DNA of 64,000 nt from Longimicrobiales bacterium. Its GTDB lineage: Bacteria; Gemmatimonadota; Gemmatimonadetes; Longimicrobiales; Gaopeijiaceae. A program made the translations under genes and the position numbers. Under the pieces are notes generated by a model, which was not told the DNA's origin, did no database searches, and saw nothing but the letters and a program-made list of their open reading frames with translations. Shown piece by piece: positions 31,320-57,269 of this stretch. Location of the stretch: positions 567,596 to 631,595 of the forward strand of contig CBDBJW010000005.1 in NCBI GenBank assembly GCA_965206505.1. Direction: 5' to 3'. Numbering within the stretch: the first letter of the stretch is position 1; the number at the start of each line of letters is the position of its first letter.

Positions 31320-31519
31320 CCGACCTCCTCTCGCTGTCGCGTCGTGTAGACGATAATCCTTTTCTTCACCGGTACGCCTCCTCTCGTGCAAAGAAAGTAA
31401 GATCTCCCGATCCTTGCCGCTTTGGTGCGTGACGTGCATAATCGAGCGGGTGAGGGCGACGGGGCCGCGAGGCCCTCCGGCCGCTCTGGCCACCACCGTA
31501 CGGAGGAGGAGGGTCGACC

Positions 31520-31636: not shown

Positions 31637-31666
31637 AGTTTCTAGATCTCGGTTCCGGGTCCTGTC

Positions 31667-33406: not shown

Positions 33407-33411
33407 CAACT

Positions 33412-34574: not shown

Positions 34575-34576
34575 CG

Positions 34577-34930
34577 ATGGCAAAGCGAGTAACGCTCGAG
34601 CCGCTCTTGTGGCTTCTCTTCAGCGCCGGGGGCGTGGTGGCTGCCCTGGTGATCCCGGTCCTGCTGTTGCTGTTCGGCCTCGTCTTCCCTCTCGGGCTCT
34701 CGCCCCCCAGCCATGAGCACATGCTCGCGGTTCTGGGCCACCCACTTTCGCGCGTGACGATTTTCGTGTCGTGCACGTTGTTGTTGTTTCACTCGGCGCA
34801 CCGCGTTCGCTTCACACTGTATGACGCGTTGCAGATCAAGCACCTGAACGAGTTGGTCATCCTGCTGGTTTACGGGGCCCTGCTCGTCGGTAGCGTTGCT
34901 GCAGGGTATCTCGTATGGCAGCTTCCATAG
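34577..34930 (+). CDS. frdD: fumarate reductase membrane subunit D
   Basis: EPLLWLLFSAGGVVAALVIPVLLLLFGLVFPLGL...LLLFHSAHRVRFTLYD parallels E. coli FrdD ([34 protein letters not shown]...LHRMHHAMHD). Confidence 0.8.
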   Translation: MAKRVTLEPLLWLLFSAGGVVAALVIPVLLLLFGLVFPLGLSPPSHEHMLAVLGHPLSRVTIFVSCTLLLFHSAHRVRFTLYDALQIKHLNELVILLVYGALLVGSVAAGYLVWQLP

Positions 34931-36106: not shown

Positions 36107-38664
<2,558 letters not shown>

Positions 38665-40061: not shown

Positions 40062-40119
40062 CGGGTCGCCCCAGAAAGCGCCGACGTGATTCTTGGGCGT
40101 CTGGAAAAAGACTGATCCC

Positions 40120-41043
40120 ATGCGAAAGATTCGAACCTATCAAGACGTTACCCACGACACCGGCTCGGGCCTGCTCGAGCAGGTCGTGGACCAGCAACAC
40201 AGCCTTGCCGACCGTCTCGCTCAAGTTCGGTCCGTCGTGGCGGTCGCTAGTGGCAAGGGCGGTGTCGGCAAGAGCGCAATCACGGCCAACCTGGCGGCTG
40301 CTCTCGCGGCGAGAGGGCTCTCCGTGGGCGCCGTCGACGCGGACCTCAACGGACCGTCGCTGGGCCGCATGTTGGGCGTGTCCGGAGCCCGGCTGGCCGA
40401 TCTGCCAAGCGGAGTGGAGCCGGCCCAGAGCCCGTCGGGGGTACGGGTGATGTCCATGGAGTTGCTCCAGGAGGAGGAGGACGCTCCCCTTCGCTGGCGA
40501 GAGCCCGAAATGGGGGGGTTCATTTGGCAAAGCACGCTCGAAACGGGGGTCCTCCGGGAGTTCCTCGGGGACGTGGAGTGGGGAGACCTGGACGTACTCT
40601 TGGTCGACGTACCGCCCGGGACGGACAAGATCAGACGGCTCTTGGAGCTTGTCCCAGACGTCGATCAGATGCTCATGGTCACGACCCCGTCGGAGACGTC
40701 TCGGTTCGTGGTGTCCAAGTCCGTTCGTATGGCCCGTGAGGCCGCCGTTGGAACAGTCGCGCTGGTCGCGAACATGGTCGAGCACACGTGTCCAGAATGC
40801 GGCCACGTGTCCCAGCTCTTCACGGGTGACGGCGCCAAGCGCCTCGAAGAGGAATCCGGCATACCCGTCTGGGCCGAGATCCCCTTCGATCCACGGCTCG
40901 GCGCTGCCACTGACTCGGGCACGCCGCTCGTGGTCACCGACCCCGATGCCCACTCATGCCGGGCGATTCTCGCACTGGCCGACCGGGTCGAAGAACTCGT
41001 CGGGATCCGGGGCGAGGACGCGGTCGAAGGGGTGGGCCCATGA
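40120..41043 (+). CDS. Mrp/NBP35 (ApbC) family Fe-S cluster carrier P-loop ATPase
   Basis: VAVASGKGGVGKSAITANLAAALA, VDADLNGPS, LLVDVPPGTD, CPECGH. The start could alternatively be 40093. Confidence 0.85.
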   Translation: MRKIRTYQDVTHDTGSGLLEQVVDQQHSLADRLAQVRSVVAVASGKGGVGKSAITANLAAALAARGLSVGAVDADLNGPSLGRMLGVSGARLADLPSGVEPAQSPSGVRVMSMELLQEEEDAPLRWREPEMGGFIWQSTLETGVLREFLGDVEWGDLDVLLVDVPPGTDKIRRLLELVPDVDQMLMVTTPSETSRFVVSKSVRMAREAAVGTVALVANMVEHTCPECGHVSQLFTGDGAKRLEEESGIPVWAEIPFDPRLGAATDSGTPLVVTDPDAHSCRAILALADRVEELVGIRGEDAVEGVGP

Positions 41044-41561
41044 AGTTCCTCTGCTTGGACTGCGACAAAGTTATGGAGTTCGCCGAGCGCCAGATTCCTG
41101 GAGACGGAACGCTCGCTGCGGTATTCAAGTGCGGATCGTGCGAGAGGGAAATGGCGATGCTCACAAACCCGATGGAGACGCAACTGGTCTCCAGCATGGG
41201 CGTGAAGATCGGTGGACGCGAGGTCCCCACCCAGCCCATGGAGCTGGCCCGCACGAAACTCGAGGGCGGCCGCGACGATGCGTTCGTTTTGTCGGAGGAT
41301 ATTCCGCTCGCCTCGGGCGAGTCAGCGCTCGCCTCGGACGACCCGGCGGTTCGAGGTGAGGGCCCGGGCGCCGGCGAGGCCCCCGCGGGACCCGTTGTGT
41401 GGACGTCGGAGGCCACCGGACGCCTCGAGCGAGTCCCCAGCTTCGTCCGGGGTATGGTGAAGCGGATTTACACCGATTGGGCACGCGAGAAGGGCGTTTC
41501 GGAGATCACGCCCGAAAACATGGACCGGGCTCGCTCGGAGTTGGGCCTGGAAGGTATGTAG
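41040..41561 (+). CDS. zinc-ribbon + PCP_red (BchB C-terminal-like) domain protein
   Basis: N-terminus CLDC...CGSC. C-terminus VVWTSEATGRLERVPSFVRGMVKRIYTDWAREKGVSEITPENMDRA resembles the C-terminal domain of protochlorophyllide reductase subunit B. ATGA coupling to mrp. Confidence 0.7.
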   Translation: MKFLCLDCDKVMEFAERQIPGDGTLAAVFKCGSCEREMAMLTNPMETQLVSSMGVKIGGREVPTQPMELARTKLEGGRDDAFVLSEDIPLASGESALASDDPAVRGEGPGAGEAPAGPVVWTSEATGRLERVPSFVRGMVKRIYTDWAREKGVSEITPENMDRARSELGLEGM

Positions 41562-41563
41562 GC

Positions 41564-42556
41564 TTGTTCGGAGCCACGGAGCTTTCCTTCACCTATCCCT
41601 CGGGCCGCAAGGGCCTGGGAAAGGTCTCCCTCAAAGCGGCCCCCGGGGATCGAGTCGTTGTCATGGGCCCGAACGGATCCGGAAAGAGCACGCTGCTTCG
41701 CCTCGTCTCCACCGAGCTCCCCTCCAGCCCAGGAACGCTCGAGCTTTTCGGCGAGGCGTGCGGACCCTCCAGACGAGACTTTCGCAAGAGGAGAGACCTT
41801 CGCAAGAGGATCGGCATCGTGCAGGATACGCCGGTTCACGTGGAAGATCTCACAGGGATGGAGAACGGGCTCCTGTTCGCGGAGCTCTACGGGTTGCCCG
41901 GAGCCGAGGCTTTGGGGGCCTTTGCAGGCCTATTCACGTCACTCGGCCTGGATGATGCGCTCCACGTTCCCACGAGGGAGTACTCGTACGGAATGAAGAA
42001 GAAGCTTCTCATCGCCGAGGCTTTGGTTCACGACCCCGACATGCTCATAATGGACGAGCCCGCGCTCGGCCTGGATCCACCTTCGCGGGCAGCTCTCCTT
42101 CGAATACTGGAGGAGCGCTCGGGGAAGGGTGTGTGCACGCTCGCGGCCACCAACGAACCCGCGCTGGCCCAAGAGCTGGCTACAACGGTCGTCCTTCTCC
42201 ACGAAGGGGAGGTCGTCGCGCACGGCAGCCCAGCCGAGCTTTTGGCCAAGGTCGGCAGCGCCACACGAATCGAACTGTACGTCGCCGGCTCTCCGCCGGC
42301 CGGCCCCATAATGACTGACCCGGCCTTCACGGGGCTCCCGGGGGACATCGTGTCGATCCAAGGACTGCCCGGGCGGATCATCGCCGAGAGCAGATCGGGC
42401 TCCGATGTTCTGCCGGAATTGGTCGGCGCGGTCCTCGCGGCGGGGCTGAAGATCGAGCGGATCGAGATACGTGAACCCGACCTCACGGACGTGTTCATGC
42501 TCTTCACCGGCCAGGCCTTGGGCCCAGCTCGCCTCACTTCTTCAACAGGCCTCTAG
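41564..42556 (+). CDS. ABC transporter ATP-binding protein (ABC-2 exporter type)
   Basis: GPNGSGKSTLLRL, YSYGMKKKLLIAEAL (signature-like), LIMDEPALGLD. TTG start chosen at 41564 after GGAAGG. Confidence 0.8.
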   Translation: MFGATELSFTYPSGRKGLGKVSLKAAPGDRVVVMGPNGSGKSTLLRLVSTELPSSPGTLELFGEACGPSRRDFRKRRDLRKRIGIVQDTPVHVEDLTGMENGLLFAELYGLPGAEALGAFAGLFTSLGLDDALHVPTREYSYGMKKKLLIAEALVHDPDMLIMDEPALGLDPPSRAALLRILEERSGKGVCTLAATNEPALAQELATTVVLLHEGEVVAHGSPAELLAKVGSATRIELYVAGSPPAGPIMTDPAFTGLPGDIVSIQGLPGRIIAESRSGSDVLPELVGAVLAAGLKIERIEIREPDLTDVFMLFTGQALGPARLTSSTGL

Positions 42557-42563
42557 AGAACCC

Positions 42564-43335
42564 GTGACACTCCCCGTGTGGAGAACGGAGTGGCTCACTG
42601 CCCTGCGGCGCCGACGCCTCCTGGTGCTCAACACGCTGATCCCCCTGGCGTTCGTGGCGCCCATCGCCCTCAGTTCAGCCCCGGCGGTACACTCCGCGGC
42701 CGCCTTCACTGTGCTCTTCGCGCTCTTCGGCACGTTCGGGTCGAGCATCCCACTGATCCGTGACGGTGAATCCGGGCTCCTCCGGCGTTATGTGCTCACG
42801 GGAGTCCACCCTGGTGGCCTCCTCCTTCAGCGCGTACTCGCCACTGTGCTCTTCGCGCTCTTCGGCAACGCGGTGAATCCGGGCTCCTGCACTCGACTTG
42901 ATCGACGCTGCACTCGACTTGATCGAACTGGCGTCGGTGCTGGTTATCGTTGTAGCTGGGGGGAGCTCGACCGCTCAATTGGCCATGGTCGTGCCGGCGC
43001 TGGTACTTGGGCTGGTCGCAGCGAACGCATTAGGCGCGCTCACCGCCGCCCTGGCAAAATCAGTCGCCGAGGGAGCGCTCTTCTCGGCAGTAGCCGCCCT
43101 CCTGCTTCTGCATTGGGCGGGGACGTTTCGTACTCCTGTTCCCGGAACCTGGCAAGCCACTCTGGAGACGTGGAATCCGTTCCGCCCGCTCCATGAAAGC
43201 TTGCTCGCGGCGGCAGGCGCCGGCGGGCCCGACTTGGACCCTGTGCTATTCACAACTCCCATCGGAGTCACGCTGGCCGTGTTGCTCCTGATTACTGCCG
43301 CCGGCCGTTATACGATAGGGCTCGGTGGCCGCTGA
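42564..43335 (+). pseudogene. ABC-2-type permease disrupted by a 70-nt mosaic insertion
   Basis: Frame A (GTG 42564: VTLPVWRTEWLTALRRRRLLVLNTLIPLAF...) and frame B (...ALDLIELASVLVIVVAGG... to 43335) are both hydrophobic. Deleting 42842-42911 joins them in frame as ...LLLQRVLALDLIELASV... Confidence 0.6.
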
Positions 43336-43479: not shown

Positions 43480-43509
43480 TTGACAGGCCTGAGAAGGGTC
43501 GGGTATACT
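43480..43509 (+). promoter_or_regulatory. sigma-70-type promoter candidate (TTGACA-N18-TATACT)
   Basis: Perfect -35 hexamer at 43480-43485 and TATACT at 43504-43509, in the 511-bp gap preceding the respiratory operon. It would give a leader of roughly 330 nt. Confidence 0.5.
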
Positions 43510-43846
43510 CACTTTCTACAACATGCACCATTTGGAACAAGCGCCCCTTGGGTAGGGCGCCGAGGACCGTGCCTTCATCGATCCGAACACTTCGCCTCCG
43601 AGGTCGAGACCTCTCGCTTAGAGGTAAGCGATCTGGGAGATCAGGACTCCGGTCGTGCTTCGTAGGGCCCTCGCTTGCTGCGGATTACCGGTAGCCCTAT
43701 CTGTGTAAGGAAATTTTGACAACGGCTGCGCACCTCTAGAGCGAATCAGATCGTACTCGATGCCCTTCCGACTTCGAAAACGGGGGCGTTTGTGCGATCG
43801 GTATGTGAAGGGTGCCAGATAACCCGGGCCGACGCCCCAGGTGATT

Positions 43847-46060
43847 ATGTACCGTGAAGTTTTCGTACCCATCGATAACTCGGACAACTCCCACTGGGCC
43901 GTCGACCGTGCCATCGAACTCTGTAAGCGCTCCGAGGGGCGGATCACAGGCAACCATGTCTACGCGGCGCGCCTTCACGATGTGCGATTTCGCCAATTGG
44001 AAACCGGACTTCCTGCCCAATTCCAATCCGCGAAGGAAATCAAGCGGCAGCGGAAGGTACACGACAAGCTGATCGAGAAGGGCCTCCAGCTCATATCGGA
44101 TTCCTTTCTCGATCAGACGGCAATCAGTTGTGAGGCGGCGGGTGTACCGCTGACCCGGCAGCTCCTCGAGGGCATCAACTATGAGGAGGTCTCTCGGGAG
44201 GCCAACCGAGGCGCCGGCCGCCTTCCCAGCCTGATCGGCTTCGACCCGAACATAGCGGACAAGTATGACGGGGGTGAGACGGTCCGTAGCGACGTCATCG
44301 TGGACGAGGACGGACGGATCATCGCAGAAGACGAGGAGCAGGATGAGAAGCTCGCCGGCTCGAGTGGTCGCGACTACGACCTCCTTGCCATCGGGGCGCA
44401 TGGGATCGGAAAACAACCGTATTCACAGTTGGGTGGAATGGTGTCGCGGGTCATCCGCCAGGTCGAAAAGGACACCCTGATCGTCAGGAACGATCGCGCG
44501 CTAGAGGGCGGTGACTGGATCGTGTGTGTCGACGGTTCCTCTTACTCGTACAAGGCCATGCGGCATGCCTTGGAGATGGCCAAGGAGTTCGGGGCGAAGC
44601 TTCATGTGTGCTCGGCCTTCGACGTGGAATACCACCACGCCGTGTTCGGGAACATCAAGGACATTCTCTCCGTGCAGGCCTCGAAGGTCTTCAAGTTCGA
44701 GGAGCAGGAAGAGCTCCACAACAACATCATCGACAAGGGTCTTCTGAAGTTGGCGCAGGCCAACCTCAAGCGGGCTGAGGTGATGACAGAGGAGTTCCCC
44801 GACGTCGAAGTCGAGACCCAGATCCTCATCGGTAAACCCTTCCAATGTATCCTCCAGTGGGTCGAGGAGATCGACCCGAGCCTTGTGATCCTCGCCCGCC
44901 ACGGCGGGCACCGGATCGAGGGTACGGACATGGGATCTCAGGCGGACAACCTGTGCCGCCTCTCGCCCACGAACATCCTGCTCATCGGCACCACCAACGT
45001 TCGCCCGGACGACATTCCCTGGATCGAAGAGGACGGGGAGACTGGGCTCGAGTGGGCGCCAGATGCCGAAGTCCGAATTCTTCGGGTGCCCCCGTTCGCA
45101 CTCGGGATCGCGCGCAAGGCCGTTGAAGAATTCGTGCTCGACAACTACGGCCCCGGGGCCAACGGCACGTACCGGGAAGAGGCGATCGTACAGGCGGCCG
45201 TGAACGGCGCCTCCACCAACGGTGCCTCGACCAACAACGTCGCCTCGAACATCGGCGCCTCGAGCAACGGCGCCCCGGCCAACGGGGAAGGGGCCAACGG
45301 CGAAAGAACGCCCCTCACCGAAGCCGAAGACGCCGCCGATGGCTCGCTTCCCGGTGCTTCGGTGCCCCCGCTCGGTGCAGGCGGTCTTCCGATGGTGACG
45401 GGCCCTCGCTTGGACGAGGCCATTACGAAGCTGCTTCCGACCCACATGCAGTTGATCATGGGCATCGGAACGGCCGAAGAGCTTGCCCTCGCCGAGGTGA
45501 AGGCCGAGGACGCGATGAAACGGACTTTGGTCAACGGCCTGGATGCCGACCCCCAGCCGGACGTCCCCATGATCTCCGCCACCTGCCCTTACAGCGGTCA
45601 TCCGCTCATGCGTGAACGGACGGCGGACGACCCGGTCGAGTGGACCCAGGAGGCCTTCGAGCGACTGAAGCTGGTGCCGTTGATCGCGAGGCCGCTGGCC
45701 CGCAACACGGTGGAGAGATTCGCCCGTGAGAACGAATTCTGGAGAGTTACCACACCGGTCATGGATGAAAACAAGCAGGCCATGATCGAGGCCGACGAAT
45801 TCGACATGGACACGATGTTGGTCATGTTCCGTGAACTTCAGACCAAGCAGATCAAGGCGGCGGCCGAGGGCATCGACGGCATGACCCCCGAGATGCGCAA
45901 GTTCATCGAAGAGGCCAAAGCCAGCGGCGTGACCCGCTGCCCGATTCGGGACGTGGCCGAGGCCACTGAGAACTGCCCGGTGGACATCAAGACCGTCTCG
46001 CCAGAGGACGCGAAGGCCGCGATCGAGAAATTCATGAGCAAGGAACCCAGCGAAGCGTGA
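43847..46060 (+). CDS. tandem universal-stress-protein (USP) domains + two PCP_red-like modules + Cys-containing C-terminal domain
   Basis: USP 1 (VFVPIDNSDNSHWAVDRAIEL...LLAIGAHG...GGMVSRVIRQ). USP 2 (WIVCVDGSSYSYKAMRHALEMA...LVILARHG...GSQADNLCR). PCP_red-like LEWAPDAEVRILRVPPFALGIARKAVEEF and VEWTQEAFERLKLVPLIARPLARNTVERFAREN. Asn/Gly/Ala/Ser-rich linker at about 45190-45310. Confidence 0.75.
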   Translation: MYREVFVPIDNSDNSHWAVDRAIELCKRSEGRITGNHVYAARLHDVRFRQLETGLPAQFQSAKEIKRQRKVHDKLIEKGLQLISDSFLDQTAISCEAAGVPLTRQLLEGINYEEVSREANRGAGRLPSLIGFDPNIADKYDGGETVRSDVIVDEDGRIIAEDEEQDEKLAGSSGRDYDLLAIGAHGIGKQPYSQLGGMVSRVIRQVEKDTLIVRNDRALEGGDWIVCVDGSSYSYKAMRHALEMAKEFGAKLHVCSAFDVEYHHAVFGNIKDILSVQASKVFKFEEQEELHNNIIDKGLLKLAQANLKRAEVMTEEFPDVEVETQILIGKPFQCILQWVEEIDPSLVILARHGGHRIEGTDMGSQADNLCRLSPTNILLIGTTNVRPDDIPWIEEDGETGLEWAPDAEVRILRVPPFALGIARKAVEEFVLDNYGPGANGTYREEAIVQAAVNGASTNGASTNNVASNIGASSNGAPANGEGANGERTPLTEAEDAADGSLPGASVPPLGAGGLPMVTGPRLDEAITKLLPTHMQLIMGIGTAEELALAEVKAEDAMKRTLVNGLDADPQPDVPMISATCPYSGHPLMRERTADDPVEWTQEAFERLKLVPLIARPLARNTVERFARENEFWRVTTPVMDENKQAMIEADEFDMDTMLVMFRELQTKQIKAAAEGIDGMTPEMRKFIEEAKASGVTRCPIRDVAEATENCPVDIKTVSPEDAKAAIEKFMSKEPSEA

Positions 46061-47487
46061 GCAGCGCAGCAGATCTCAGGTCCATGTCCTCTGCAACTCT
46101 GGCACCTCCCGCTCCGGAAGGGCTCGAGACGGTCGCGCCAAGCCGGGAGCGGGGTCCGTACACTCCGCATATCGTTGCGTGGAACCTCACGAAGCGATGT
46201 AACCTGGCGTGTGCGCACTGTTATATCTCGGCGGGTTCCTGGCATGTGGCCGACGATGAGCTCTCCACGGATCAATGCTTGCGCATCCTGGATGAGATTC
46301 TCGACGTGAACCCCAACCCCATGTTGATCCTTACTGGGGGAGAGCCCCTCCTTCGAGACGACCTGGAGGCCCTGGCAAAGCAAGCTTCTGCGGGGGGCGC
46401 CACGGTTGTGGTGGGAACCAACGGGACGCGCCTTAGCGGCGAGCGTATCGACTCCCTGTTGGAAGCCGGCGTTAAGGGTGTCGCGGTGAGTATCGACTCG
46501 CTGCGTCCCGAGTATCATGATCGGTTTCGGCACGGCGGGGGCGCACTCACGGACACGATGGCTGCGGTCGAGCGTTGCTCGGCTCGAAAGCTCGATTTTG
46601 TTATTCAGACGACCGTCACGTCCGGTAATCGGCACGAAATTGCAGATTTGGCTCGCTGGTCGGCCGAGGCGGGAGCCGTTTCCTTCAACGTCTACTTCGT
46701 GGTCCCGACCGGGCGCGCAGAACATATGCAGGGCATGAGTCCCGAAGAGAACGACGAAGTCCTTCGTGAGCTCGTCGAGCTGGAGGGGACCTATCGCGGC
46801 CGCATGATGGTCCGCTCGAAGTGCCAACCACAGATCATGAGGCACGTGGTCGGGGGTGATCCGGAGTCTCCCCTGCTGAACTATGAGACTCGCTGTCCCT
46901 GTGGTGTCCACTACGTGCGTATCACGCCTGAGGGCAAGGTCACGCCATGTCCTTATATGCCCGTGGTCGCGGGGGACCTGTTGACGCAGAGTTTTCAGGA
47001 AATCTGGGAGTCGTCGCCCGTCTTCACCAAGCTCAGAACAGGCGAGCTGGGCGGACGGTGCGGACGGTGCGAGTACCGCGAAGTGTGCGGAGGATGCCGC
47101 GCCCGCGCCTATGCCGACAACGGCGATTTTATGGGTCCGGATGATTCCTGCGCCTACGAGCCGTCCGGAGAGACACCCCTCATTGCGTCTCGCCGGCCGG
47201 TCTCCTACGGGCAATCAGTCCCAGATGGGCAGTCGGGCGCCGACCGCGGCGCCTCCATCGAGCAAACCCCATCGGTCGCCCTCGAGTGGACCCCGGAAGC
47301 GCTCGCCCGCATGGACAAAGTACCAAGCTTCGTTCGGGGAGTGGTCATACAAAGGGTCGAGAAGTTCGCCAATGACCGAGGCTACACATGCGTGGATGTG
47401 GAAGTCATGGAGGAGGTTCGTCGGAACCTCCCCGTGGATTTCTCCAAGAAACTTCCGTTCTTCTTGGGAAGAGGGGGAAGGGCATGA
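46057..47487 (+). CDS. radical SAM / SPASM enzyme of the NirJ/AhbC/AhbD (tetrapyrrole-modifying) type with a C-terminal PCP_red module
   Basis: CNLACAHCY cluster motif, LILTGGEPLL, VGTNGT, SIDS, QTTVT, VPTGR. SPASM end GGRCGRCEYREVCGGCRARAYADNGDFMGPDDSCAY. C-terminus LEWTPEALARMDKVPSFVRGVVIQRVEKFANDRGY. Confidence 0.8.
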   Translation: MSSAADLRSMSSATLAPPAPEGLETVAPSRERGPYTPHIVAWNLTKRCNLACAHCYISAGSWHVADDELSTDQCLRILDEILDVNPNPMLILTGGEPLLRDDLEALAKQASAGGATVVVGTNGTRLSGERIDSLLEAGVKGVAVSIDSLRPEYHDRFRHGGGALTDTMAAVERCSARKLDFVIQTTVTSGNRHEIADLARWSAEAGAVSFNVYFVVPTGRAEHMQGMSPEENDEVLRELVELEGTYRGRMMVRSKCQPQIMRHVVGGDPESPLLNYETRCPCGVHYVRITPEGKVTPCPYMPVVAGDLLTQSFQEIWESSPVFTKLRTGELGGRCGRCEYREVCGGCRARAYADNGDFMGPDDSCAYEPSGETPLIASRRPVSYGQSVPDGQSGADRGASIEQTPSVALEWTPEALARMDKVPSFVRGVVIQRVEKFANDRGYTCVDVEVMEEVRRNLPVDFSKKLPFFLGRGGRA

Positions 47488-49274
47488 GAGCGGTGAGCTT
47501 GAAGCTCGTGGGGGTGTTGAGCCTCACCGCGCTGGCTCTTCACCTGTTCGCCGACGTGGCCTGGGCGCAGGATATCGCCGGCCGAGACTACGGGGATTTC
47601 CCCGTGATCGGGGGGCGCACGGCCGTCTGGATCGCAGCCCAGGTCCACCTTCTCTTCGCGGCCTTCGTGCTCGGCGTGCCCATGTTCGCGGTGGTCGCCG
47701 AGGGCTACGGCATGTGGGGCGGTGGCTCGAATTATGATAAGCTCGCGAAGGAGTTCACGCGGCTGTTGCTCGTGGCGTACTCCGCAACGGCGATCTGGGG
47801 AGCCATCCTCTCCTTCCTCCTCATCACGATCTTCCCCAACCTGTGGATCTACCTTGCTGAGATCTTCGAGGTCTCCATGTGGCTCTACGTGGGACTCTTC
47901 TTCTTCGAGTCGTTCACCCTCTATCTGTACTACTACGGCTGGGATCGCTGGAACCAGGGGCGGGCCAAGCTGGGCCACTTGACGTTGGGGATTTTGCTGA
48001 ACGTCTTTGGCACGGTGGTGATGCTCATCGCCAACTCGTGGCTCACATACATGATGAGCCCGCCGGCGGAGGTGACTGCCGACACCGCGCCTGGAATGGT
48101 CCCACTGTGGAACGCCATCGCGAACGCGACCTGGATGCCCATCAACATCCATCGGGTCATCGCCAACCTCGTGTTCGGCGGTGCGATCGTGGGCGCCTAT
48201 GCGGCCTACCGCTTTCTAATGGCGAGGACGGACGAAGAGCGCGCTCATTACGACTGGATGGGCTACGTCGGAAACCTGATCGCGATCGGCTGGCTTATCG
48301 TCCTGCCCTTCGCCGGTTACTACCTGGGCCGAGAGCTCTACGAGTTCAGCCCGCAGATGGGCAACACCCTCATGGGCGGATTCATGAGCTGGCTTTGGAT
48401 CATCCAGGCCTTTTTGATCGGAGTGCTGTTTCTGGCGGGCAACTATTACTTGTGGGTCGGCATGGGACGCATCCCGGGAGCCGAGCGGTTCACGCCCTAC
48501 ACGAAATACATGCTGGTCGTGCTCGTGATAGGCGTCATGGTGTGGGCGACGCCGCACACGATGATCGCCAGCCGGGAAGAGGTCGACGCCATGGGCGGGG
48601 TGTACCACCCGTTCCTGGGTGTCCTTGGCGTCATGAGCGCCAAGAACACGGCCGTGAATATCATGATCTTGACGACGATCCTCTCGTTCCTGCTCTACGG
48701 GCGCGCGAACAAGAACCCGACAGTTCCGTGGGCTAGGACGGGCACGATGGTGCAGGCGGCTCTGTTCCTGATCGCCGCGATCATCGTGATGTTTTACGGC
48801 GTATACGGCTACTTCGTCGACGCGATCACACGGGTCGGTTTCTCGGTCTGGCAGGTACTGGCGGTGCTGGTGACCATCGTGGGCGTGGGCATCATTCACC
48901 TGTTCATGATGCGCGGCGCGGAGTCGCGCGGTGACATCCGGTGGGGTCAGATGCCCCCTCGTTCCCAATACGCGCTCTTCATCTTGGCCGTCACGTTCAC
49001 ATGGCTGATGGGTCTCATGGGCTTCGCCCGGAGCGGCATCCGCCAGCACTGGCATGTGTGGGAGGTCGTGCGAGACACGAGCGAGTGGGCGTCGACGCCT
49101 GCGCTCGGCTACGCCGCCCTCGTGATCTCCGCCTGCGTGTTGATCTTCTTCACGCTCGTGGCGTTCATTTTCTGGCTCGGTGGGCTAGCCGAGAAGCCGT
49201 TCGCCCCACAGGCGAGAACGGACGCCTCCCCGTCCACTGGAGGGCCGGAGCTCGCTCCGGCCGCGGGCGACTGA
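47484..49274 (+). CDS. cytochrome bd subunit I (CydA)-like membrane protein, non-canonical (no Q-loop, N-terminal signal-like peptide, no cydB partner)
   Basis: AAQVHLLFAAFVLGVPMF (His19-type context), WLYVGLFFFESFTLYLYYYGWDRW (compare FFLESTF..GWDR), LNVFGTVVMLIANSWLTYMMSPP (compare ANSWMQ.P) and INIHRVIANLVFGGAIVGAYAAYRFL (His186-type context). 596 aa and hydrophobic to the end. ATGA coupling to the radical SAM gene. Confidence 0.7.
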   Translation: MRAVSLKLVGVLSLTALALHLFADVAWAQDIAGRDYGDFPVIGGRTAVWIAAQVHLLFAAFVLGVPMFAVVAEGYGMWGGGSNYDKLAKEFTRLLLVAYSATAIWGAILSFLLITIFPNLWIYLAEIFEVSMWLYVGLFFFESFTLYLYYYGWDRWNQGRAKLGHLTLGILLNVFGTVVMLIANSWLTYMMSPPAEVTADTAPGMVPLWNAIANATWMPINIHRVIANLVFGGAIVGAYAAYRFLMARTDEERAHYDWMGYVGNLIAIGWLIVLPFAGYYLGRELYEFSPQMGNTLMGGFMSWLWIIQAFLIGVLFLAGNYYLWVGMGRIPGAERFTPYTKYMLVVLVIGVMVWATPHTMIASREEVDAMGGVYHPFLGVLGVMSAKNTAVNIMILTTILSFLLYGRANKNPTVPWARTGTMVQAALFLIAAIIVMFYGVYGYFVDAITRVGFSVWQVLAVLVTIVGVGIIHLFMMRGAESRGDIRWGQMPPRSQYALFILAVTFTWLMGLMGFARSGIRQHWHVWEVVRDTSEWASTPALGYAALVISACVLIFFTLVAFIFWLGGLAEKPFAPQARTDASPSTGGPELAPAAGD

Positions 49275-50695
49275 TGCAGGATTCCACAGTGGGCCTCCTG
49301 GCCTCCTTCGATTACGTAGACTCGGCCGTGAATGCCATCGACGAGTTAAGGGCAGCCGGCCTCAAGAAGATCACCGCGTACATGCCGTATCCCGAGGCCC
49401 AAATCGAGGAGGCGCTCGGGTACGATCAGAGCCCTGTCAGGGTGTGGGCGTTGGCGGGTGGGCTTTTGGGCGCCGGCGGCGGATTGGCTCTCACGTCCTT
49501 TACCTCGATGGATTGGCCGTTGGTCACGGGTGGCAAGCCGATCCTCTCGATTCCCGCCTATGTGATCATCACGTTCGAGATGATGGTCTTGTTCGGCGCG
49601 TTGTCCACCGTGATCGGGCTCTTCATCAATAGCCGCCTTCCCTATGTCAAACCGATGGTCGTCTATGATCCGGAGTTCAGCGCTGGGAAGTTCGGGGTCT
49701 ATGTGACGGTAGCGGCTGATCGCCTCGATCGAGCCAGGGGCATCCTGAGGGGCCAGGACCCGGCTGAAATCCGGGAAGATCCTGTGGGGGTTACTCACGC
49801 TGTCCCCCGACTCGACCCGGGATCCGACGTCCGGGAAGAGCCTGTGGGGGTGGGGGCAGGCGCGGCGCATGCGGCGTCCGGATTCGATTCGGGATCTGAG
49901 GCTCGCGAGATGCTGATGGAAAACCTCAAGATCTTCGCGGTCGTCATCGGCACGCTTGGCACCTTCACGCTCGTGGCCAATATCATTCCGCAGTTACAGT
50001 CGGAGGTGCCTGCGGAACTCGTCTTCGGAGCCGACGTGAGCCCCGAGGAGCTGACGTTGTCCGGGCAGATCCTCTTCGAAGGGGCCGCAGGTTGTGTGGC
50101 CTGTCACGGGCTGGGCGAGAGGGCTCCGAACCTTCTGACGGACCACGAGGCCACGGGCACAATCGGCGTACGGTGCGCGAATCGCGTGCCCAGCCAGGAT
50201 TGCAAGGCGTACCTCTACGCCTCGCTGATCGACCCGACAACGTACCTCGTGGACGGCTTCGCAGCGCTCATGACGGACTACCGTGCGCAGCTCTCGAACG
50301 CGCAGATCTGGGCGCTCGTGGCCTACCTGCAGTCCGAGGGCGGCGAGGTGACCGTAACGGGCGCAGACATCATCGAGACCGGCGGTTTTACGAGTTCTGC
50401 CGCCGCCCCGGCGGGACCTCTCACGGCGTCCATGGATCCCGTCGAGATCGTGACAGCCCTTGGGTGCCTCGGCTGCCACGTATTCGACGGAGGGGGAGCC
50501 CCGATGGGTCCCCCGTTCGACGGGATCGGCACACGCATAGATGCCGACTATATCCGCGAGTCGATCCTGGATCCGACCGCCAGCGCCTCGGAGGGTTTCG
50601 AGCAATTCCTGGGCGCAATGCCTCCGATCTTCGGTAGCCAACTCAACGGGAGTCAGTTGGAAGCCGTGGTACAGTTCCTGGCCAACCAACGCTAA
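49274..50695 (+). CDS. ActD-like (DUF3341) membrane domain fused to a dihaem cytochrome c
   Basis: N-terminus GLLASFDYVDSAVNAIDELRAAG...GGLLGAGGGLALTSFTSMDWPLVTGGKPILSIPAYVIITFEMMVLFGAL matches the alternative complex III ActD/DUF3341 pattern. This is followed by an acidic repeat linker, a TM helix and two CXXCH motifs (CVACH, CLGCH). Confidence 0.7.
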   Translation: MQDSTVGLLASFDYVDSAVNAIDELRAAGLKKITAYMPYPEAQIEEALGYDQSPVRVWALAGGLLGAGGGLALTSFTSMDWPLVTGGKPILSIPAYVIITFEMMVLFGALSTVIGLFINSRLPYVKPMVVYDPEFSAGKFGVYVTVAADRLDRARGILRGQDPAEIREDPVGVTHAVPRLDPGSDVREEPVGVGAGAAHAASGFDSGSEAREMLMENLKIFAVVIGTLGTFTLVANIIPQLQSEVPAELVFGADVSPEELTLSGQILFEGAAGCVACHGLGERAPNLLTDHEATGTIGVRCANRVPSQDCKAYLYASLIDPTTYLVDGFAALMTDYRAQLSNAQIWALVAYLQSEGGEVTVTGADIIETGGFTSSAAAPAGPLTASMDPVEIVTALGCLGCHVFDGGGAPMGPPFDGIGTRIDADYIRESILDPTASASEGFEQFLGAMPPIFGSQLNGSQLEAVVQFLANQR

Positions 50696-50713: not shown

Positions 50714-51514
50714 ATGGGCAAGTACTTCAAGCATCCCTTGGGCCAGGCTGGCCTGGTCCTAGTGGCCTCTTACTTTCTGTTGGAGTACGGGATCGCGTAC
50801 CTCCCGCCTTTGGTCGGCATCGCAAGCGCTCCGGTCCCGAATTCGGTGGTGTTCCAGTTTCTCGTTACCGTGGGCGTGGGGGTCCTCCTCTGGGTCAGCG
50901 ACAACGAAGCCCGTTGGACGGAGTTCAAGGAGCCGATCCACCGCGTGATGGTGGACCCGGACCAGAAGCTGGCTCGGAGCTCGCTGATGGTGCTGGTGCC
51001 GATCCTCGTAGCATTCGCGACGTTCAGTCAGGTAAGACCTTCTGTGGCAGCGCCTTCGAGCCTACGCTCGATTCACCCGTCGGCTCCGAGCCAGTTCGAG
51101 TTTCAGGGATCGATGGTGGAGCTCACCAGCTTGGAGAACCCCCTGCGCTCGAGTGGCTCCTTGGAGGAGCACTATGAAGAAGGGAAGCGCGTCTACTATG
51201 AGAACTGTCTGGCCTGTCATGGTGACGGCCTCGACGGCCGGGGGCATTACGCGCATGGATTCAATCCTGCCCCCCTGAGCTTCCAGGACGTCGGCACCAT
51301 CGCGCAGCTCGTCGAAGCCTTTGTTTTCTGGCGTATCGCGAAGGGGGGACCCGGGCTTCCCAACGAGGGGGGCCCGTGGAACTCGGCCATGCCGGCATGG
51401 GAGGACTTCCTGACTGAAGACGAGATCTGGTCCGTGATCATCTTCTTGTATGAGCAGTCCGGTCATGAACCGCGCACGTTCGAAGAGGAAGGCGGAGAGG
51501 GGGAGGCGGAATGA
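50714..51514 (+). CDS. membrane-anchored monohaem cytochrome c
   Basis: Three N-terminal hydrophobic helices, then YYENCLACHGDGLDG ... MPAW is a class I cytochrome c pattern. Confidence 0.75.
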   Translation: MGKYFKHPLGQAGLVLVASYFLLEYGIAYLPPLVGIASAPVPNSVVFQFLVTVGVGVLLWVSDNEARWTEFKEPIHRVMVDPDQKLARSSLMVLVPILVAFATFSQVRPSVAAPSSLRSIHPSAPSQFEFQGSMVELTSLENPLRSSGSLEEHYEEGKRVYYENCLACHGDGLDGRGHYAHGFNPAPLSFQDVGTIAQLVEAFVFWRIAKGGPGLPNEGGPWNSAMPAWEDFLTEDEIWSVIIFLYEQSGHEPRTFEEEGGEGEAE

Positions 51515-53139
51515 CGGCCGCGATGGGCACGATGAGTGGGCAAGCAGCCGGTATCGCCAGGCAGATGGCCTTGATCGTCCTCCTCTCGGCGGCATCGGCA
51601 CTAGTTGGGGATGGCCTGAGCGCTCAGGACGGGGACGATCTCGGCCAGATCACCTATGACCGTTGGTGTGCCGGCTGCCACGGTGTGGACGGGACGGGCA
51701 ACGGCCCCGCCTCCGGCTACATGCTTCCCCGGCCACGGGACTTCACCGAGGCGCTGTACCAGATTCGGACGACGGCCAGCGGCGAGCTCCCAACGGATGA
51801 GGACATTCGGGCCATAATCGACCGGGGGATGCCGGGTACGACGATGCCGGGCTGGGAGGATCTTCTTTCAAACGACGAGATAGAGGCGCTGGTCGAGTAT
51901 CTCAAGTCGTTTTCCCGGTTCTTCACTCCCGATGCGGTCCCGCAGCCTTTCGACTTCGGTGGCGCCCCGCGGGTCAATGCCGACGTGCTCGCTGAAGGTG
52001 AGGGGCTGTTCCGGGAAGTAGCGGATTGCGCGGCGTGCCATGGGGACGGGGGCCGAGGCGACGGAGAGTCTTCACCGACGCAGGTCGATGACGGGGACTT
52101 TCCGATTCGCGTGGCCGACCTGACCGAGAACTGGCTGTTCAACGGCGGCGGAGAGGTCGAGGACATCTACCGTCGACTGCTGACGGGCCTGGACGGCACG
52201 CCCATGCCGAGCTTGGCCGACGTCGTCACCGCGGGCGTCCTCACCTACGAACAGGTCTGGGCCGTTGCACACTACGTTCGCAGCCTTGCACCCGACGACC
52301 CGCCGGGAATCACCGAGGTTGTCCGGGGTGTTCTCTTCGAGGACGTTCCGCTTCCGTCGTCGGTCGACGACGAAGCGTGGGATGACATCGAGGCCGCCTA
52401 CCTACCGCTCGTCGGACAAATCATCGTGATGCCGCGCTGGTTCGACCCCCGGGTGGACGGTGTCTGGGTGCAGGCCGCGCATGACGGAGAATCCGTGGCA
52501 GTTCGTGTCACCTGGAGCGATCCCAACAGCAGCCCCGATCCTTTGTGGGCCGACTGGAAGTCCTTGGTGATTTCGCTCATGCAGCCGAAGGAGGGAGACC
52601 CCCAGGACGAGGGGCCGACGCCCGATCAACTCGTGGTCCAGTTCCCGATGGAGATGCCGGAGGGCATGGAGCGGCCGTTCTTCCTGAAGGGGGACAACCG
52701 CCGTCCGGTGTATCTGTGGCAGTGGCAGAGTGACCGCGTTAGCGCCCTGGAAGGCGAGGCCGGCGGCGTCGGGACCGAGGCCTTCCAATCGGAGGGGCAA
52801 AACCTTACCGTAGACGCCTCGCATGCGGACGGCCAATGGCAGGTCATGTTCACGAGGCCGCTCGTCACGGACAACGAAGGCGACCTCGATTTCGTGACCG
52901 GTGAGGCCATTCCGATGGCCTTGTTCGCCTGGGATGGAGACAACGGGGAATCCGGCACCAGGGGCGCGGTCAGTTCCTGGTACTTCATGTTCCTCGAGGA
53001 CGCCACTCCCGCCACTGTGTATGTGGCCCCCGCTTTGGCTATGATGTTGACGGCCGCGTTTGGATTCTTGGTGGTAGCCCGCGCCCAGAAGAGGGAGCGG
53101 GAGGGTGGTGAAGTAGAAAGCAAGACACCGTATAGTTGA
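51511..53139 (+). CDS. dihaem cytochrome c fused to an EB_dh-like (ethylbenzene dehydrogenase gamma / DOMON-like haem-binding) domain, C-terminal TM anchor
   Basis: CAGCHGVDGTGNG and CAACHGDGGRGDG. Then VQFPMEMPEGMERPFFLKGDNRRPVYLWQW...LFAWDGDNGESGTRGAVSSWYFMFLE. C-terminal helix VAPALAMMLTAAFGFLVVA. Confidence 0.65.
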   Translation: MTAAMGTMSGQAAGIARQMALIVLLSAASALVGDGLSAQDGDDLGQITYDRWCAGCHGVDGTGNGPASGYMLPRPRDFTEALYQIRTTASGELPTDEDIRAIIDRGMPGTTMPGWEDLLSNDEIEALVEYLKSFSRFFTPDAVPQPFDFGGAPRVNADVLAEGEGLFREVADCAACHGDGGRGDGESSPTQVDDGDFPIRVADLTENWLFNGGGEVEDIYRRLLTGLDGTPMPSLADVVTAGVLTYEQVWAVAHYVRSLAPDDPPGITEVVRGVLFEDVPLPSSVDDEAWDDIEAAYLPLVGQIIVMPRWFDPRVDGVWVQAAHDGESVAVRVTWSDPNSSPDPLWADWKSLVISLMQPKEGDPQDEGPTPDQLVVQFPMEMPEGMERPFFLKGDNRRPVYLWQWQSDRVSALEGEAGGVGTEAFQSEGQNLTVDASHADGQWQVMFTRPLVTDNEGDLDFVTGEAIPMALFAWDGDNGESGTRGAVSSWYFMFLEDATPATVYVAPALAMMLTAAFGFLVVARAQKREREGGEVESKTPYS

Positions 53140-53164: not shown

Positions 53165-53944
53165 ATGTCGGATCGATTTGAAATGGGCGGAGTCGTCGCG
53201 CCCATACTCATGCTGCTGGTTATGGCCGGCTGCGGAGGTGGAGACGGAGGTGACGGTGGCGGTGGCGCCGGAGGTGGTGCGGCCGTGGAAAACCCGGTCG
53301 ATGCGGCCACGGCCGGCAACATCGCGGGATCCGTCGTTTTCGAGGGCGCCGTGCCCAGCATGGACGACATCGACATGAGCAGCGAGTCCGCGTGTGCGGC
53401 CAAGCACGCCTCCACGCCGATGGTCCAGGAAGTCGTCGTCAACAGCAATGGTACTCTGGCCAACGTGTTCGTCTACGTGCAGGAAGGGCTGGAGAGCCTC
53501 CAGTTCCCGACACCCGAAGCGGTACTGCTGAACCAGGACGGATGTGTCTACCTCCCGCACGTTTTGGGCGTGATGGCGGGTCAAGACATCACGATCAGGA
53601 ACAGCGACGGGCTGTTGCACAACATCAACGCATCGCCCGACATCAACCGCGGCTTCAACAGCAGCCAGCCCGTCAATATGGAGACCACGCGCAGCTTCGC
53701 GACGGCCGAGGTCATGGTTCCTCTGCGCTGCGACGTCCACGGTTGGATGAACGCTTATGTCGGCGTCCTCGATCACCCGTATCACTCCGTGTCGAACAGC
53801 AGTGGCGCCTTCAACCTGTCGACGCTGCCTCCGGGCGATTACGTGATCGAGGCGTGGCACGAGCGTTACGGAACGCAGACCCAGAACGTGACCGTGACCA
53901 CGGGTCAGACCGCCGAAGTCACGTTCACCTTCAGTGCATCCTAA
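53165..53944 (+). CDS. lipoprotein with cupredoxin-like type-1 copper site and a carboxypeptidase-regulatory-like beta-sandwich
   Basis: Lipobox LVMAGCGG with a Gly-rich tether. Candidate ligands are His in LLHNINASP and C-x2-H-x2-M in LRCDVHGWM (amicyanin-like spacing). C-terminus GAFNLSTLPPGDYVIEAWHERYG. Confidence 0.6.
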   Translation: MSDRFEMGGVVAPILMLLVMAGCGGGDGGDGGGGAGGGAAVENPVDAATAGNIAGSVVFEGAVPSMDDIDMSSESACAAKHASTPMVQEVVVNSNGTLANVFVYVQEGLESLQFPTPEAVLLNQDGCVYLPHVLGVMAGQDITIRNSDGLLHNINASPDINRGFNSSQPVNMETTRSFATAEVMVPLRCDVHGWMNAYVGVLDHPYHSVSNSSGAFNLSTLPPGDYVIEAWHERYGTQTQNVTVTTGQTAEVTFTFSAS

Positions 53945-54042: not shown

Positions 54043-54813
54043 ATGAATTTTTTCTGGCGTACGGGGATGGTGCTGGCCGGCATGCTTACCGTGGTCATTG
54101 TGTTGTGGGTCATAACCGGCCCCTCGTGGCTGGACCTTACCTGGGTGATGCCGGACAACGTCGTGTCGACGTACGGGCAGACTCTAGACGACCTGTGGCT
54201 CGTGATCCTTTGGATCACGGGTATCATCTTCTTCGCCACGGAGATCGTCTTGTTGGTCTTCATGGTGAAGTACCGCCACAGGGAAGGACGTAAAGCGGAG
54301 TACATCCACGGCAGCAACAAGGCCGAGGTTATATGGACGGCGATTCCCTTCGTCATCGTCATGGGTTTGGCCTTCTACTCGAAGGGCATCTGGGACGAGA
54401 TCCGTGATCCCAACCGCATCCCGGCCAACGCATATCCGATCAACATGCTAGCCACTCAGTTCGAGTGGAACGCCACCTATGCGGGCGCCGACGGAGACTT
54501 CGATACGTCGGACGATTTCGTCTCCCTAAACGTACTGCACATTCCGGTCGCTCAACCCGTTGTAGTCCGGTTGATGGCCCAGGACGTGATCCACTCGTTG
54601 TTTCTACCCGAGTTCCGGGTCAAGCAGGACGCGGTGCCCGGCATGATCACCCCGGTCTGGTTCGAGGCGACACAGACAGGTGAGTTTACCCTGGCCTGTG
54701 CCGAGCTCTGCGGGCTCGGGCACTATACGATGGGGGGGACGGTCATCGTCCATTCACAGGCTGATTTTCAAGATTGGCTCGCGGAGCAGCAAGCCGAAGC
54801 GGAGGATGACTGA
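54043..54813 (+). CDS. coxB: cytochrome c oxidase subunit II (CuA, no fused cytochrome c)
   Basis: Two N-terminal TM helices, DVIHSLFLPEF, and the CuA motif CAELCGLGHYTM. Confidence 0.9.
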   Translation: MNFFWRTGMVLAGMLTVVIVLWVITGPSWLDLTWVMPDNVVSTYGQTLDDLWLVILWITGIIFFATEIVLLVFMVKYRHREGRKAEYIHGSNKAEVIWTAIPFVIVMGLAFYSKGIWDEIRDPNRIPANAYPINMLATQFEWNATYAGADGDFDTSDDFVSLNVLHIPVAQPVVVRLMAQDVIHSLFLPEFRVKQDAVPGMITPVWFEATQTGEFTLACAELCGLGHYTMGGTVIVHSQADFQDWLAEQQAEAEDD

Positions 54814-56609: not shown

Positions 56610-56612
56610 CGC

Positions 56613-57269
56613 ATGAGCGACGCTGCAGTTGCGACCATGGACCGCAAGCCCATGCCAGGGATGATGGTCTACAACAAGAAGTTGGGCATGTGGGTGTTCC
56701 TGCTCAGCGAGGTGATGTTCTTCACCTCGTTGATCGGATCCTACCTCATCCTACGCTTCGCCCACCCAGACCATTGGACCGATCCGGGTGTCATTCTGAA
56801 CGTTCCCCTGACGGCCTTGAACACGTTCCTCCTGATCTGTTCGTCCGTGACCATGGTCAAGGCCTTTGCGGCCATCCAGCAAGGGGACCAGCAGGGCCTC
56901 AAGCGGTGGCTTCTGGCCACGATTCTGATCGGGTCGACCTTCGTTGGCATCCAGGGCATCGAATACAGCGTGCTCTCGGGTGAGGGCTTCCTACCGGCGC
57001 AGGAGACCTACCACGCCGTGGGCCGTGGAAATCCTCACGAGGGTCCTTCCCTCGGCGGGCCGCTCTACGGGGCAACCTTCTACGCCATGACCGGCTTTCA
57101 CGGAGCGCATGTGTCGATCGGGGTTCTCTGTCTGATTTTCGTCTACATCATGGCGCTCCGCGGGGCATACACTGTCCAGGATTATGAGGGCGTGGAGATA
57201 ATCGGCCTTTACTGGCACTTCGTGGATCTCGTTTGGATCCTCCTGTTCACCATCGTCTACCTCATTTGA
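56613..57269 (+). CDS. ctaE: cytochrome c oxidase subunit III
   Basis: LGMWVFLLSEVMFF, TGFHGAHVSIGV, LYWHFVDLVWILLF. Confidence 0.9.
   Translation: MSDAAVATMDRKPMPGMMVYNKKLGMWVFLLSEVMFFTSLIGSYLILRFAHPDHWTDPGVILNVPLTALNTFLLICSSVTMVKAFAAIQQGDQQGLKRWLLATILIGSTFVGIQGIEYSVLSGEGFLPAQETYHAVGRGNPHEGPSLGGPLYGATFYAMTGFHGAHVSIGVLCLIFVYIMALRGAYTVQDYEGVEIIGLYWHFVDLVWILLFTIVYLI

Follow-up and report, generated by a model that had tools for sequence, protein, structure and literature searches.

A Gemmatimonadota member of the OR-N2 cytochrome bd-like subfamily and its conserved cytochrome c and cupredoxin-like partners

A 64,000-nucleotide stretch of the genome of a Longimicrobiales bacterium (Gemmatimonadota; assembly GCA_965206505.1, contig CBDBJW010000005.1, positions 567,596 to 631,595; hereafter the window, in whose own numbering all coordinates are given) carries a gene for a CydA-like protein followed by genes for cytochromes c. 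The question raised by this locus is what kind of protein it encodes, and from where and to where its electrons would flow. A first-pass annotation, made from the sequence alone, had treated the product as an orphan. Our analysis does not bear out this status: the protein matches the described subfamily OR-N2 in its helices, in the loss of the Q-loop, in its residue signature and in the type of operon to which it belongs. It is thus a new Gemmatimonadota member of OR-N2 and not a new class of protein, and with high confidence we assign the gene as orthologous to that of the 'cytochrome bd-like' catalytic-type subunit in the NIDE0901-type module of Nitrospira. The NIDE0901-type protein reportedly figured as a 'cytochrome bd-like oxidase' in Lücker's 2010 study in PNAS.

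The gene (47484-49274, + strand) is a stop-free reading frame, the translation of which gives an OR-N2-type CydA-like subunit of 596 amino acids with a predicted signal peptide and 13 transmembrane (TM) helices. Its ATG shares the tetranucleotide ATGA with the stop codon of the upstream radical-SAM gene and its own stop codon overlaps the start of the next gene. Homology of the product to the CydA superfamily is confirmed, far beyond chance. The Pfam profile PF01654 (Cyt_bd_oxida_I) scores 61 bits (cut-off 26.2; E=1e-16) over residues 45-565 and profile positions 3-409 of 418, thereby reaching the profile end, and phmmer pairs the protein with CydA of Geobacillus (5doq_A) at E=8e-11. Local profile alignment with hhalign equates residues 44-249 with residues 8-212 of Escherichia coli CydA (Prob 95.7%, E=1e-8) and pairs H55 with H19, Y135 with E99, E142/S143 with E107/S108 and H223 with H186 (E. 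coli numbering). An AlphaFold2 (AF2) model built on 45 homologues has a predicted local distance difference test score (pLDDT) of 81.3 and a predicted template modelling score (pTM) of 0.82; the top ten Foldseek matches of this model in the PDB are all CydA chains, from E. coli, Mycobacterium, Geobacillus and Corynebacterium, with E values from 5e-7 to 2e-4. The CydA motifs quoted at first pass, namely the helix-1 His (H55=H19), FFFES (E142=E107), GWDRW, ANSW and NIHRV (H223=H186), are all present and aligned as claimed, and in the profile alignment these His and Glu landmarks do fall on CydA sites. Beyond TM5 the local profile alignment to E. coli CydA finds no significant similarity. The global profile alignment, with a probability of 2%, served for motif-level correspondences alone, and the equivalences to M393 and E445 of E. 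coli CydA are tentative.

Hydropathy and the AF2 model agree on 14 hydrophobic helices in the CydA-like protein. The first hydrophobic segment (residues 2-28) ends in AWA↓QD (the arrow marking the predicted cleavage site) and is followed by a low-confidence linker, with pLDDT <50 for residues 22-41. The signal-like N-terminus seen at first pass is accordingly recognizable as a predicted cleavable Sec signal peptide (47484-47570, +; residues 1-29, composed of MRAVSLK, an h-region and AWA↓QD), joined to TM1 by a disordered periplasmic linker. An h-region followed by AxA↓Q recurs in relatives from several phyla, including Gemmatimonadota, Methylomirabilota and anammox bacteria (TLA↓Q, AMA↓Q, AFA↓Q, VLA↓Q, SLA↓Q, VFA↓Q). 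Because of this recurrence, a cleavable signal peptide is likely to be a family-wide trait. If it is cleaved, a long N-terminal tail would lie outside and the mature protein would have 13 TM helices, N-out and C-in. The distribution of Lys and Arg, 20 in predicted cytoplasmic segments against 7 in periplasmic ones, fits this topology, and the N-out orientation is that of TM1 of CydA.

The apparent absence of the Q-loop noted at first pass was likewise confirmed: no region of the protein aligns to the Q-loop of CydA, there are no equivalents of K252/E257, and the periplasmic loop between TM6 and TM7 has only about 20 residues in the model and the topology. The extra helices are also real, but their supposed C-terminal placement probably does not hold. 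The last two helices bear R516-S517-G-I-R520-Q-H-W523-H524, aligned to the TM8 motif AEYGRQPW of CydA, and in the RQxW part R520/W523 correspond to R448/W451 of E. coli. Since the C-terminal pair carries the TM8 motif and the Pfam match runs to the profile end, the extra helices were most probably inserted internally in place of the Q-loop, and TM7-TM11 would stand where CydA has the Q-loop and TM7.

The first-pass view that the Met ligand of haem b558 had been lost fared less well. In 27 diverse OR-N2-like sequences, with identity to the window protein down to about 36%, the residues H55, Y135, E142, H165, H223, R224, D257, M297 and M384 are invariant, as are K387, R516, R520, H524 and D531. 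With M384 and M297 both invariant, the ligand cannot be called missing and is probably retained. These two residues, at periplasmic helix starts, are the candidate Met ligands of b558, M384 being the position aligned by Murali et al. near M393 of E. coli, and H524 is a candidate replacement for the lost ligand E445. The residues of chief interest in the subunit are H55, Y135, E142, H165, H223, M297, M384, K387, R516, S517, R520 and H524.

The simplest answer to the question of function would be an ordinary quinol-oxidizing cytochrome bd subunit I, as suggested by the match to PF01654 and by the database name 'cytochrome ubiquinol oxidase subunit I'. The protein, however, lacks the Q-loop and the equivalents of K252/E257, has 13-14 helices instead of 9, and conserves neither E99 nor E445. 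Among the five polytopic membrane-protein open reading frames (ORFs) of the window, four were scanned and none of these encodes a CydB-like protein; for these four, the first-pass statement that a cydB-like gene is lacking holds. We regard this answer as highly improbable, and a canonical quinol-oxidizing bd (qOR) is effectively refuted by the absent Q-loop, the changes of E445 to S517 and of E99 to Y135, and the lack of a CydB-like ORF among those scanned.

Proteins of a different type provide a much closer match. Lücker 2013 described in Nitrospina and Nitrospira a 'bd-like oxidase' with 14 TM helices, the N-terminal part of which is alignable to CydA; these bd-like oxidases keep the haem b ligands, but membrane helices replace the Q-loop and the quinol-binding residues are all missing. 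Murali, Gennis & Hemp 2021 formalized such proteins as the OR-N family, subfamily OR-N2, and list Gemmatimonadota among the phyla with OR-N. Their Suppl. Table 6 gives for OR-N2 14 helices, H at H19, Y at E99, E at E107, H at H126, H at H186, N at M393 (with a Met four residues before), S at E445 and Y/Y at F114/F116; OR-N1 has Gly at the E107 position. The window protein reproduces the OR-N2 signature one for one, with H55, Y135, E142, H165, H223, N388/M384, S517 and Y149/Y151. As in the OR-N family, the quinol site is absent and the CydA-like protein contains no CxxCH. It has the 14 hydrophobic segments of OR-N2, the first being probably a cleaved signal peptide. According to the supplement of Murali 2021, OR-N2 operons hold several cytochromes c and an EbdC homologue; in the window, the three genes downstream encode five CxxCH motifs and an EB_dh domain. 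The same authors remark that OR-N2 often stands alone, and our data agree: of 80 related loci, none carries another CydA-like gene within about 10 kb.

The comparison with Nitrospira supports orthology at the level of the whole module. In Nitrospira sp. Kam-Ns4a (L081), the order of genes (CydA-like protein, TM plus cytochrome c, cytochrome c, dihaem c/EB_dh) is that of the window. Identity between the two amounts to 47% for the CydA-like protein, 37% for the monohaem cytochrome c (E=4e-59) and 31% for the dihaem c/EB_dh protein; the TM plus cytochrome c partner is 23% identical to its counterpart, the match being restricted to the cytochrome c part. The Nitrospira copy that shares 47% identity with the window protein heads the cytochrome c/EbdC operon, and a second Nitrospira paralogue shares 42%. 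There is also a large group of homologues, 31-38% identical to the window protein, without an equivalent of E142. The homologues grouped with P0154 were considered as orthologues and rejected, as they belong to this Glu-less, OR-N1-like paralogous group; their context in locus L083 was uninformative.

The CydA-like protein has more than 7,400 matches in the protein database. At least 593 stretches of species-representative genomes encode a relative, and the counts of loci given below cover the best 80 of these, all from Gemmatimonadota, with 67-88% identity. In 79 of the 80 the CydA-like gene is flanked on both sides by conserved genes, which form a run encoding Mrp, PCP_red, Usp-PCP_red, radical SAM-PCP_red, the CydA-like protein, cytochromes, a lipoprotein and COX2/1/3.

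The nearest partner is encoded by the next gene (49271-50695, +), the product of which has 474 amino acids and is composed of an ActD domain (residues 3-169), a repeat-like linker, a TM segment at about residues 221-239 and two cytochrome c domains with the haem motifs CVACH at 275 and CLGCH at 399 (Pfam ActD, 4.9e-42, and Cytochrom_C). It matches in the PDB the ActD chains of alternative complex III (ACIII; E=1e-19) and the dihaem cytochrome Kustd1711 (7ZS0; E=4e-15). Kustd1711 is encoded in the nxr cluster of the anammox bacterium Kuenenia; each of its two haems has a potential of about +350 mV, which suits a donor to an oxidase. Direct fusion of the TM plus dihaem part (residues 220-474) to the CydA-like protein is seen in P0122, P0125 and P0137, close relatives of the window protein with 45-55% identity, and such fusions come from 'Ca. 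Scalindua', 'Ca. Anammoxibacter' and Acidobacteriota. These fusions are strong evidence that the dihaem part is the immediate redox partner. OR-N2-type proteins with one or two C-terminal cytochrome c domains after an extra TM helix, found in Scalindua, Anammoxibacter and Sulfidibacter (Acidobacteriota), comprise P0122, P0125 and P0137, P0390-P0411, and proteins in loci L085 and L086; for P0396 no genomic context turned up. As the split between OR-N and OR-C rests on haem c motifs, such fusions blur it.

The ActD part has a different history. Cytochromes c had been named at first pass as the immediate partners, and the downstream genes do encode them, but the ActD portion is not part of the core: among the 83 other loci matching the partner it occurs in one alone, L001, the closest relative of the window. 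The remaining 82 encode only a dihaem protein of about 266 amino acids or its fused equivalent, and other Gemmatimonadota loci begin the partner gene at the equivalent of Met213-215. ActD and an acidic repeat-like linker (EDPVGV...H...GS-E) form an in-frame fusion with the dihaem c at 49271-49900 (+) in the window and at 11785-12600 in L001, where the repeat copies of the linker are more numerous than in the window.

Three further genes complete the core of the module. The first encodes a membrane-anchored monohaem cytochrome c (50714-51514, +; 266 amino acids, CLACH at 165), kept in 72 of the 80 loci. The second product, of 542 amino acids (51511-53139, +), is a dihaem cytochrome c with an EB_dh (EbdC/NxrC-like haem b) domain and a C-terminal TM anchor. 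It is matched by EB_dh (9.4e-20) and two Cytochrom_C domains in Pfam and also by TIGR03477, and its PDB matches are 6h5l_B (E=1.6e-47), NxrC (7b04_C, 5.6e-7) and EbdC (2ivf_C, 4.3e-6). The third is a lipoprotein (53165-53944, +) with the lipobox LVMAGC, a CarboxypepD_reg domain and the motif LHN ... CDVHGWM. Among 67 homologues, which span four phyla and include proteins of Acidobacteriota, Rokubacteria and Scalindua, 66 keep the C-x2-H-x2-M element and 59 the HN pair. This conservation suggests a probable type-1 (blue) copper site, missed by Pfam, and the lipoprotein is probably an electron carrier of the module. The proposal rests on the conserved motif and not on PDB matches: a sequence search of the PDB gave a weak plastocyanin match and matches to flavivirus E at chance level.

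What does such a module do? The first-pass annotation left function, cofactors and electron direction open, and the literature of 2024-2025 still describes them as experimentally open. We find it somewhat probable that the OR-N2 module is a cytochrome c (or cupredoxin)-oxidizing O2 reductase. In the CydA-like protein, TM1-4 keep the four-helix bundle of CydA, with H55 as axial ligand of the haem at the active site and with E142/S143 and H165 as residues of the proton path on the cytoplasmic side, and TM5 keeps the His of b558 (H223). The dihaem cytochrome c is of a high-potential type, obligately associated with the CydA-like protein and fused to it in some lineages. With extra helices in place of the Q-loop, quinol would not be the electron source. 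Electrons would instead enter from the periplasm through the Kustd1711-like dihaem c, the monohaem c, the dihaem c/EbdC-like protein and possibly the blue-copper lipoprotein, then reach a b558-like haem with His/Met ligation (H223 plus either M384 or M297) and pass on to the haem site of H55. There O2 would be reduced with cytoplasmic protons and a membrane potential generated as in cytochrome bd. In Gemmatimonadota, the module would then probably be a second, parallel terminal oxidase that shares the cytochrome c/cupredoxin pool of the aa3 oxidase.

Several observations favour O2 reduction. E142, H165, H55, H223, M384 and H524 are invariant in the OR-N2-like set, and the Glu is lost in the paralogous group. 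According to the literature some Nitrospirales genomes lack any other oxidase, and in these the bd-like enzyme must reduce O2. Locus L089 holds a complete ACIII, a caa3 oxidase, an OR-N2 module and a Usp-PCP_red gene in one row, the layout expected of a complex III feeding two terminal oxidases. Other points weigh on the opposite side. In the literature no OR-N enzyme has been purified or structurally solved and O2 reduction is an inference; two residues of canonical bd are changed, E99 to Tyr and the b595 ligand E445 to Ser; homology is undetectable beyond TM5, which makes the number of haems and the assignment of the Met and H524 ligands uncertain; and the family is found in strictly anaerobic anammox bacteria. 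The cross-phylum linkage to cox genes could equally mean that the module acts in series with the aa3 oxidase and not in parallel.

This linkage deserves a closer look. Just beyond the lipoprotein gene lie the genes of an aa3-type cytochrome c oxidase (54043-57269, +), with COX2 at 54043-54813, COX1 at 54813-56609 and COX3 at 56613-57269. COX2 is matched by the Pfam families COX2 and COX2_TM; COX1 and COX3 were called from ORFs and translations, their conserved position, and COX1 and COX3 Pfam matches at the same position in other phyla. The cox genes are reached in 63 of the 80 loci, the remainder being mostly short or truncated contigs. Sulfidibacter (Acidobacteriota) and Rokubacteria (Methylomirabilota) likewise combine the core module with the lipoprotein and cox genes, and Scalindua has the core module without cox genes.

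The position upstream of cox allows speculation about a function resembling that of complex III. The CydA-like protein would then oxidize menaquinol at a new site that the inserted helices create within the membrane. From its b haems, electrons would go to the cupredoxin and the anchored cytochromes c, and these would feed the downstream aa3 oxidase, possibly as a supercomplex. We consider this unlikely, though the main rival of O2 reduction, and give the same low credence to its corollary, a third kind of quinol:cytochrome c oxidoreductase beside bc1 and ACIII, built on a CydA scaffold. In nitrite oxidizers and anammox bacteria the reaction would be reversed, with quinone being reduced. The module lies directly upstream of cox in Gemmatimonadota (the 63 loci above), Acidobacteriota and Methylomirabilota, the same position in which ACIII genes commonly precede an oxidase. 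A survey of Gemmatimonadota genomes found petB in 23%, ACIII in <10% and caa3 in 74%, although the low count of ACIII may, according to its authors, be an annotation artefact. The possibility had been raised by Lücker 2013, and both the presence of the family in anaerobic anammox bacteria and the invariant charged residues of the inserted helices (K387, R450, D531) are compatible with it. Against this stand the absence of the known quinol-binding residues and the conservation of E142 and H165, both residues of the cytoplasmic proton path, a better fit to a reductase site. Moreover, L089 has a complete ACIII beside the module, which hence is not simply a replacement of complex III; Nitrospira has the module without cox genes; and the ACIII-like ActD domain is a lineage-specific addition.

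The EB_dh domain points in yet another direction, as it is the docking subunit for enzymes of the type II dimethyl sulfoxide (DMSO) reductase family such as NXR, and in Nitrospina and Kuenenia a bd-like gene lies within the nxr cluster. The module could reduce some other small oxidant, such as NO or H2O2, or be a non-catalytic haem-b membrane conduit or anchor; in the conduit version, the EbdC/NxrC-like domain would dock a periplasmic redox enzyme and the module would wire this enzyme to the respiratory chain. The replacement of E99 and E445 and the occurrence of the family in anaerobes agree with this proposal, but neither the window cluster nor the 80 loci contain the alpha or beta subunit of a molybdoenzyme, carrying cox instead, and conservation is strict for both the His of the active site and the Glu of the proton path. 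We rate it as doubtful, lower than menaquinol oxidation, and continue to favour the cytochrome c-oxidizing O2 reductase.

The genes upstream of the CydA-like gene are nearly as well conserved as the module itself. The directly adjacent gene (46057-47487, +; Pfam), which precedes the CydA-like gene in 79 of the 80 loci and is translationally coupled to it in the window, encodes a radical SAM/SPASM enzyme that belongs to the NirJ2/AhbD (tetrapyrrole-tailoring) group and ends in a PCP_red domain. The NCBIfam scores of this enzyme, 285 bits for NirJ2 and 273 bits for AhbD, are both under the cut-offs of 500. In front of it, the first gene of the tightly packed run (43841-46060, +; Pfam) encodes a protein of 739 amino acids with two Usp domains and PCP_red; it is also kept in 79 of the 80 loci and adjoins OR-N2 genes in Sulfidibacter (L086) and in L089. 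Further upstream are a small PCP_red protein (40956-41561, +; Pfam; 69 of the 80 loci) and an Mrp/NUBPL-type Fe-S carrier ATPase (40093-41043, +; Pfam; 61 of the 80 loci). PCP_red is the porphyrin-capping C-terminal domain of the protochlorophyllide reductase BchB. Three upstream proteins (40956-41561, 43841-46060 and 46057-47487) each end in this domain, which is also encoded beside OR-N genes in Nitrospira (L081, 825-1286), Sulfidibacter (L086, 7834-9900 and from 21940 onward) and L089 (15434-17458). In Sulfidibacter, a gene for an amine-oxidase/HemY-like protein adjoins the radical-SAM gene. The PCP_red proteins and the radical-SAM enzyme may form a system for the supply or tailoring of haem; were the module to oxidize menaquinol, the AhbD/NirJ-like enzyme and the PCP_red proteins might likewise supply or tailor its haem.

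From the Usp-PCP_red gene to COX3 no gap between genes exceeds 98 nt, as would fit a single long operon. A sigma-70-type match (TTGACA-18-TATACT, 11 of 12 positions) lies at 43480-43509 (+), about 330 nt 5' of the Usp-PCP_red gene; it is a consensus match only, and in a scan of the window for promoters and terminators the overall count of matches was no better than in shuffled sequence. Between the small PCP_red and the Usp-PCP_red genes an ABC transporter is inserted (41399-43335, +), an arrangement found in only 15 of the 80 loci. It consists of an ATPase (41399-42556) and an ABC-2-type permease, the frame of which (42471-43335) contains a stop codon and may represent a frameshift or a pseudogene.

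Transposase genes flank the whole cluster. One, of an integrase type with HTH_38 and rve domains (36300-37688, -), overlaps a second transposase-like ORF (37574-38347, -), and another, with DDE_Tnp_1/DUF772 (57742-58725, -), lies just past COX3. Upstream, at about 29480-34930 (+), is a set of genes resembling those of succinate dehydrogenase/fumarate reductase, with a Fumarate_red_D/Sdh_cyt membrane subunit at 33833-34930; an ORF of 586 amino acids at 31646-33406 lies within this region.

Nitrospira and Nitrospina, key nitrifiers, are believed to rely on OR-N2 enzymes as their main terminal oxidase. The near-universal presence and high conservation of the module in the 80 Gemmatimonadota species genomes examined offer heterotrophic, partly culturable hosts (Gemmatimonas) for probing the function of the enzyme. 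Our analysis defines a core module consisting of the CydA-like subunit, the TM-anchored dihaem c, the monohaem c, the dihaem c/EbdC-like protein and the cupredoxin-like lipoprotein. New are the occurrence of this core with its lipoprotein across phyla and its linkage to aa3 oxidase genes, the co-conserved genes for PCP_red and AhbD/NirJ-like radical-SAM proteins, the lineage-specific ActD fusion, and the signal peptide, which is likely to be cleaved, as a trait of the OR-N2 family. If the module did act as a complex III, it would be the 'missing complex III' of most Gemmatimonadota, Rokubacteria and some Acidobacteriota, and its running in reverse could explain its presence in nitrite oxidizers and anammox bacteria; this idea is weakened because L089 combines ACIII, caa3 and OR-N2 and because ActD is lineage-specific.

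Compared with known systems, canonical CydA (E. coli 6rko/6rx4, Geobacillus 5doq) is homologous to the window protein over TM1-5 and is its best structural match. The two share H19, E107/S108, H126 and H186, together with GWDR, ANxW and, towards the C terminus, RQxW. Unlike canonical CydA, the window protein has no Q-loop (K252/E257), has Tyr at E99 and Ser (S517) at the b595 ligand E445, and possesses four TM helices in addition to the canonical nine as well as a signal peptide; its electron donors would be c-type cytochromes and not quinol, and no CydB or CydX partner was found.

The OR-C1 proteins, CydA homologues with a fused C-terminal haem c, also lack the quinol site and presumably receive electrons from cytochrome c. 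They have 8 helices against 13-14 in the window protein, and OR-C1a lacks the equivalent of H186. OR-C1 contains the haem c domain within the subunit, whereas the window protein has no CxxCH, but its close relatives P0122, P0125 and P0137 carry fused cytochrome c domains. With ACIII (ActABCDEF) the module shares a true ActD homologue, the N-terminal domain of the window partner, and a position upstream of cox that resembles act-cox operons. The resemblance is limited to that ActD domain, which is fused to a dihaem c: ActA, ActB, ActC and ActF are absent from the cluster genes scanned with Pfam, as are NrfD and Molydop from the cluster genes and membrane ORFs scanned.

The closest known system is therefore the OR-N2, NIDE0901-type module, which has the same 14 TM segments, the same lack of a Q-loop, the same residue signature and the same order of partners as the module of the window. 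Relative to its Nitrospira counterpart, the latter is hosted by Gemmatimonadota, stands in a conserved run that also encodes a cupredoxin-like lipoprotein and an aa3 oxidase, has no OR-N1-type paralogue within about 10 kb, and is preceded by radical-SAM and PCP_red genes; an N-terminal ActD domain on its dihaem c partner is a property of the window lineage only.

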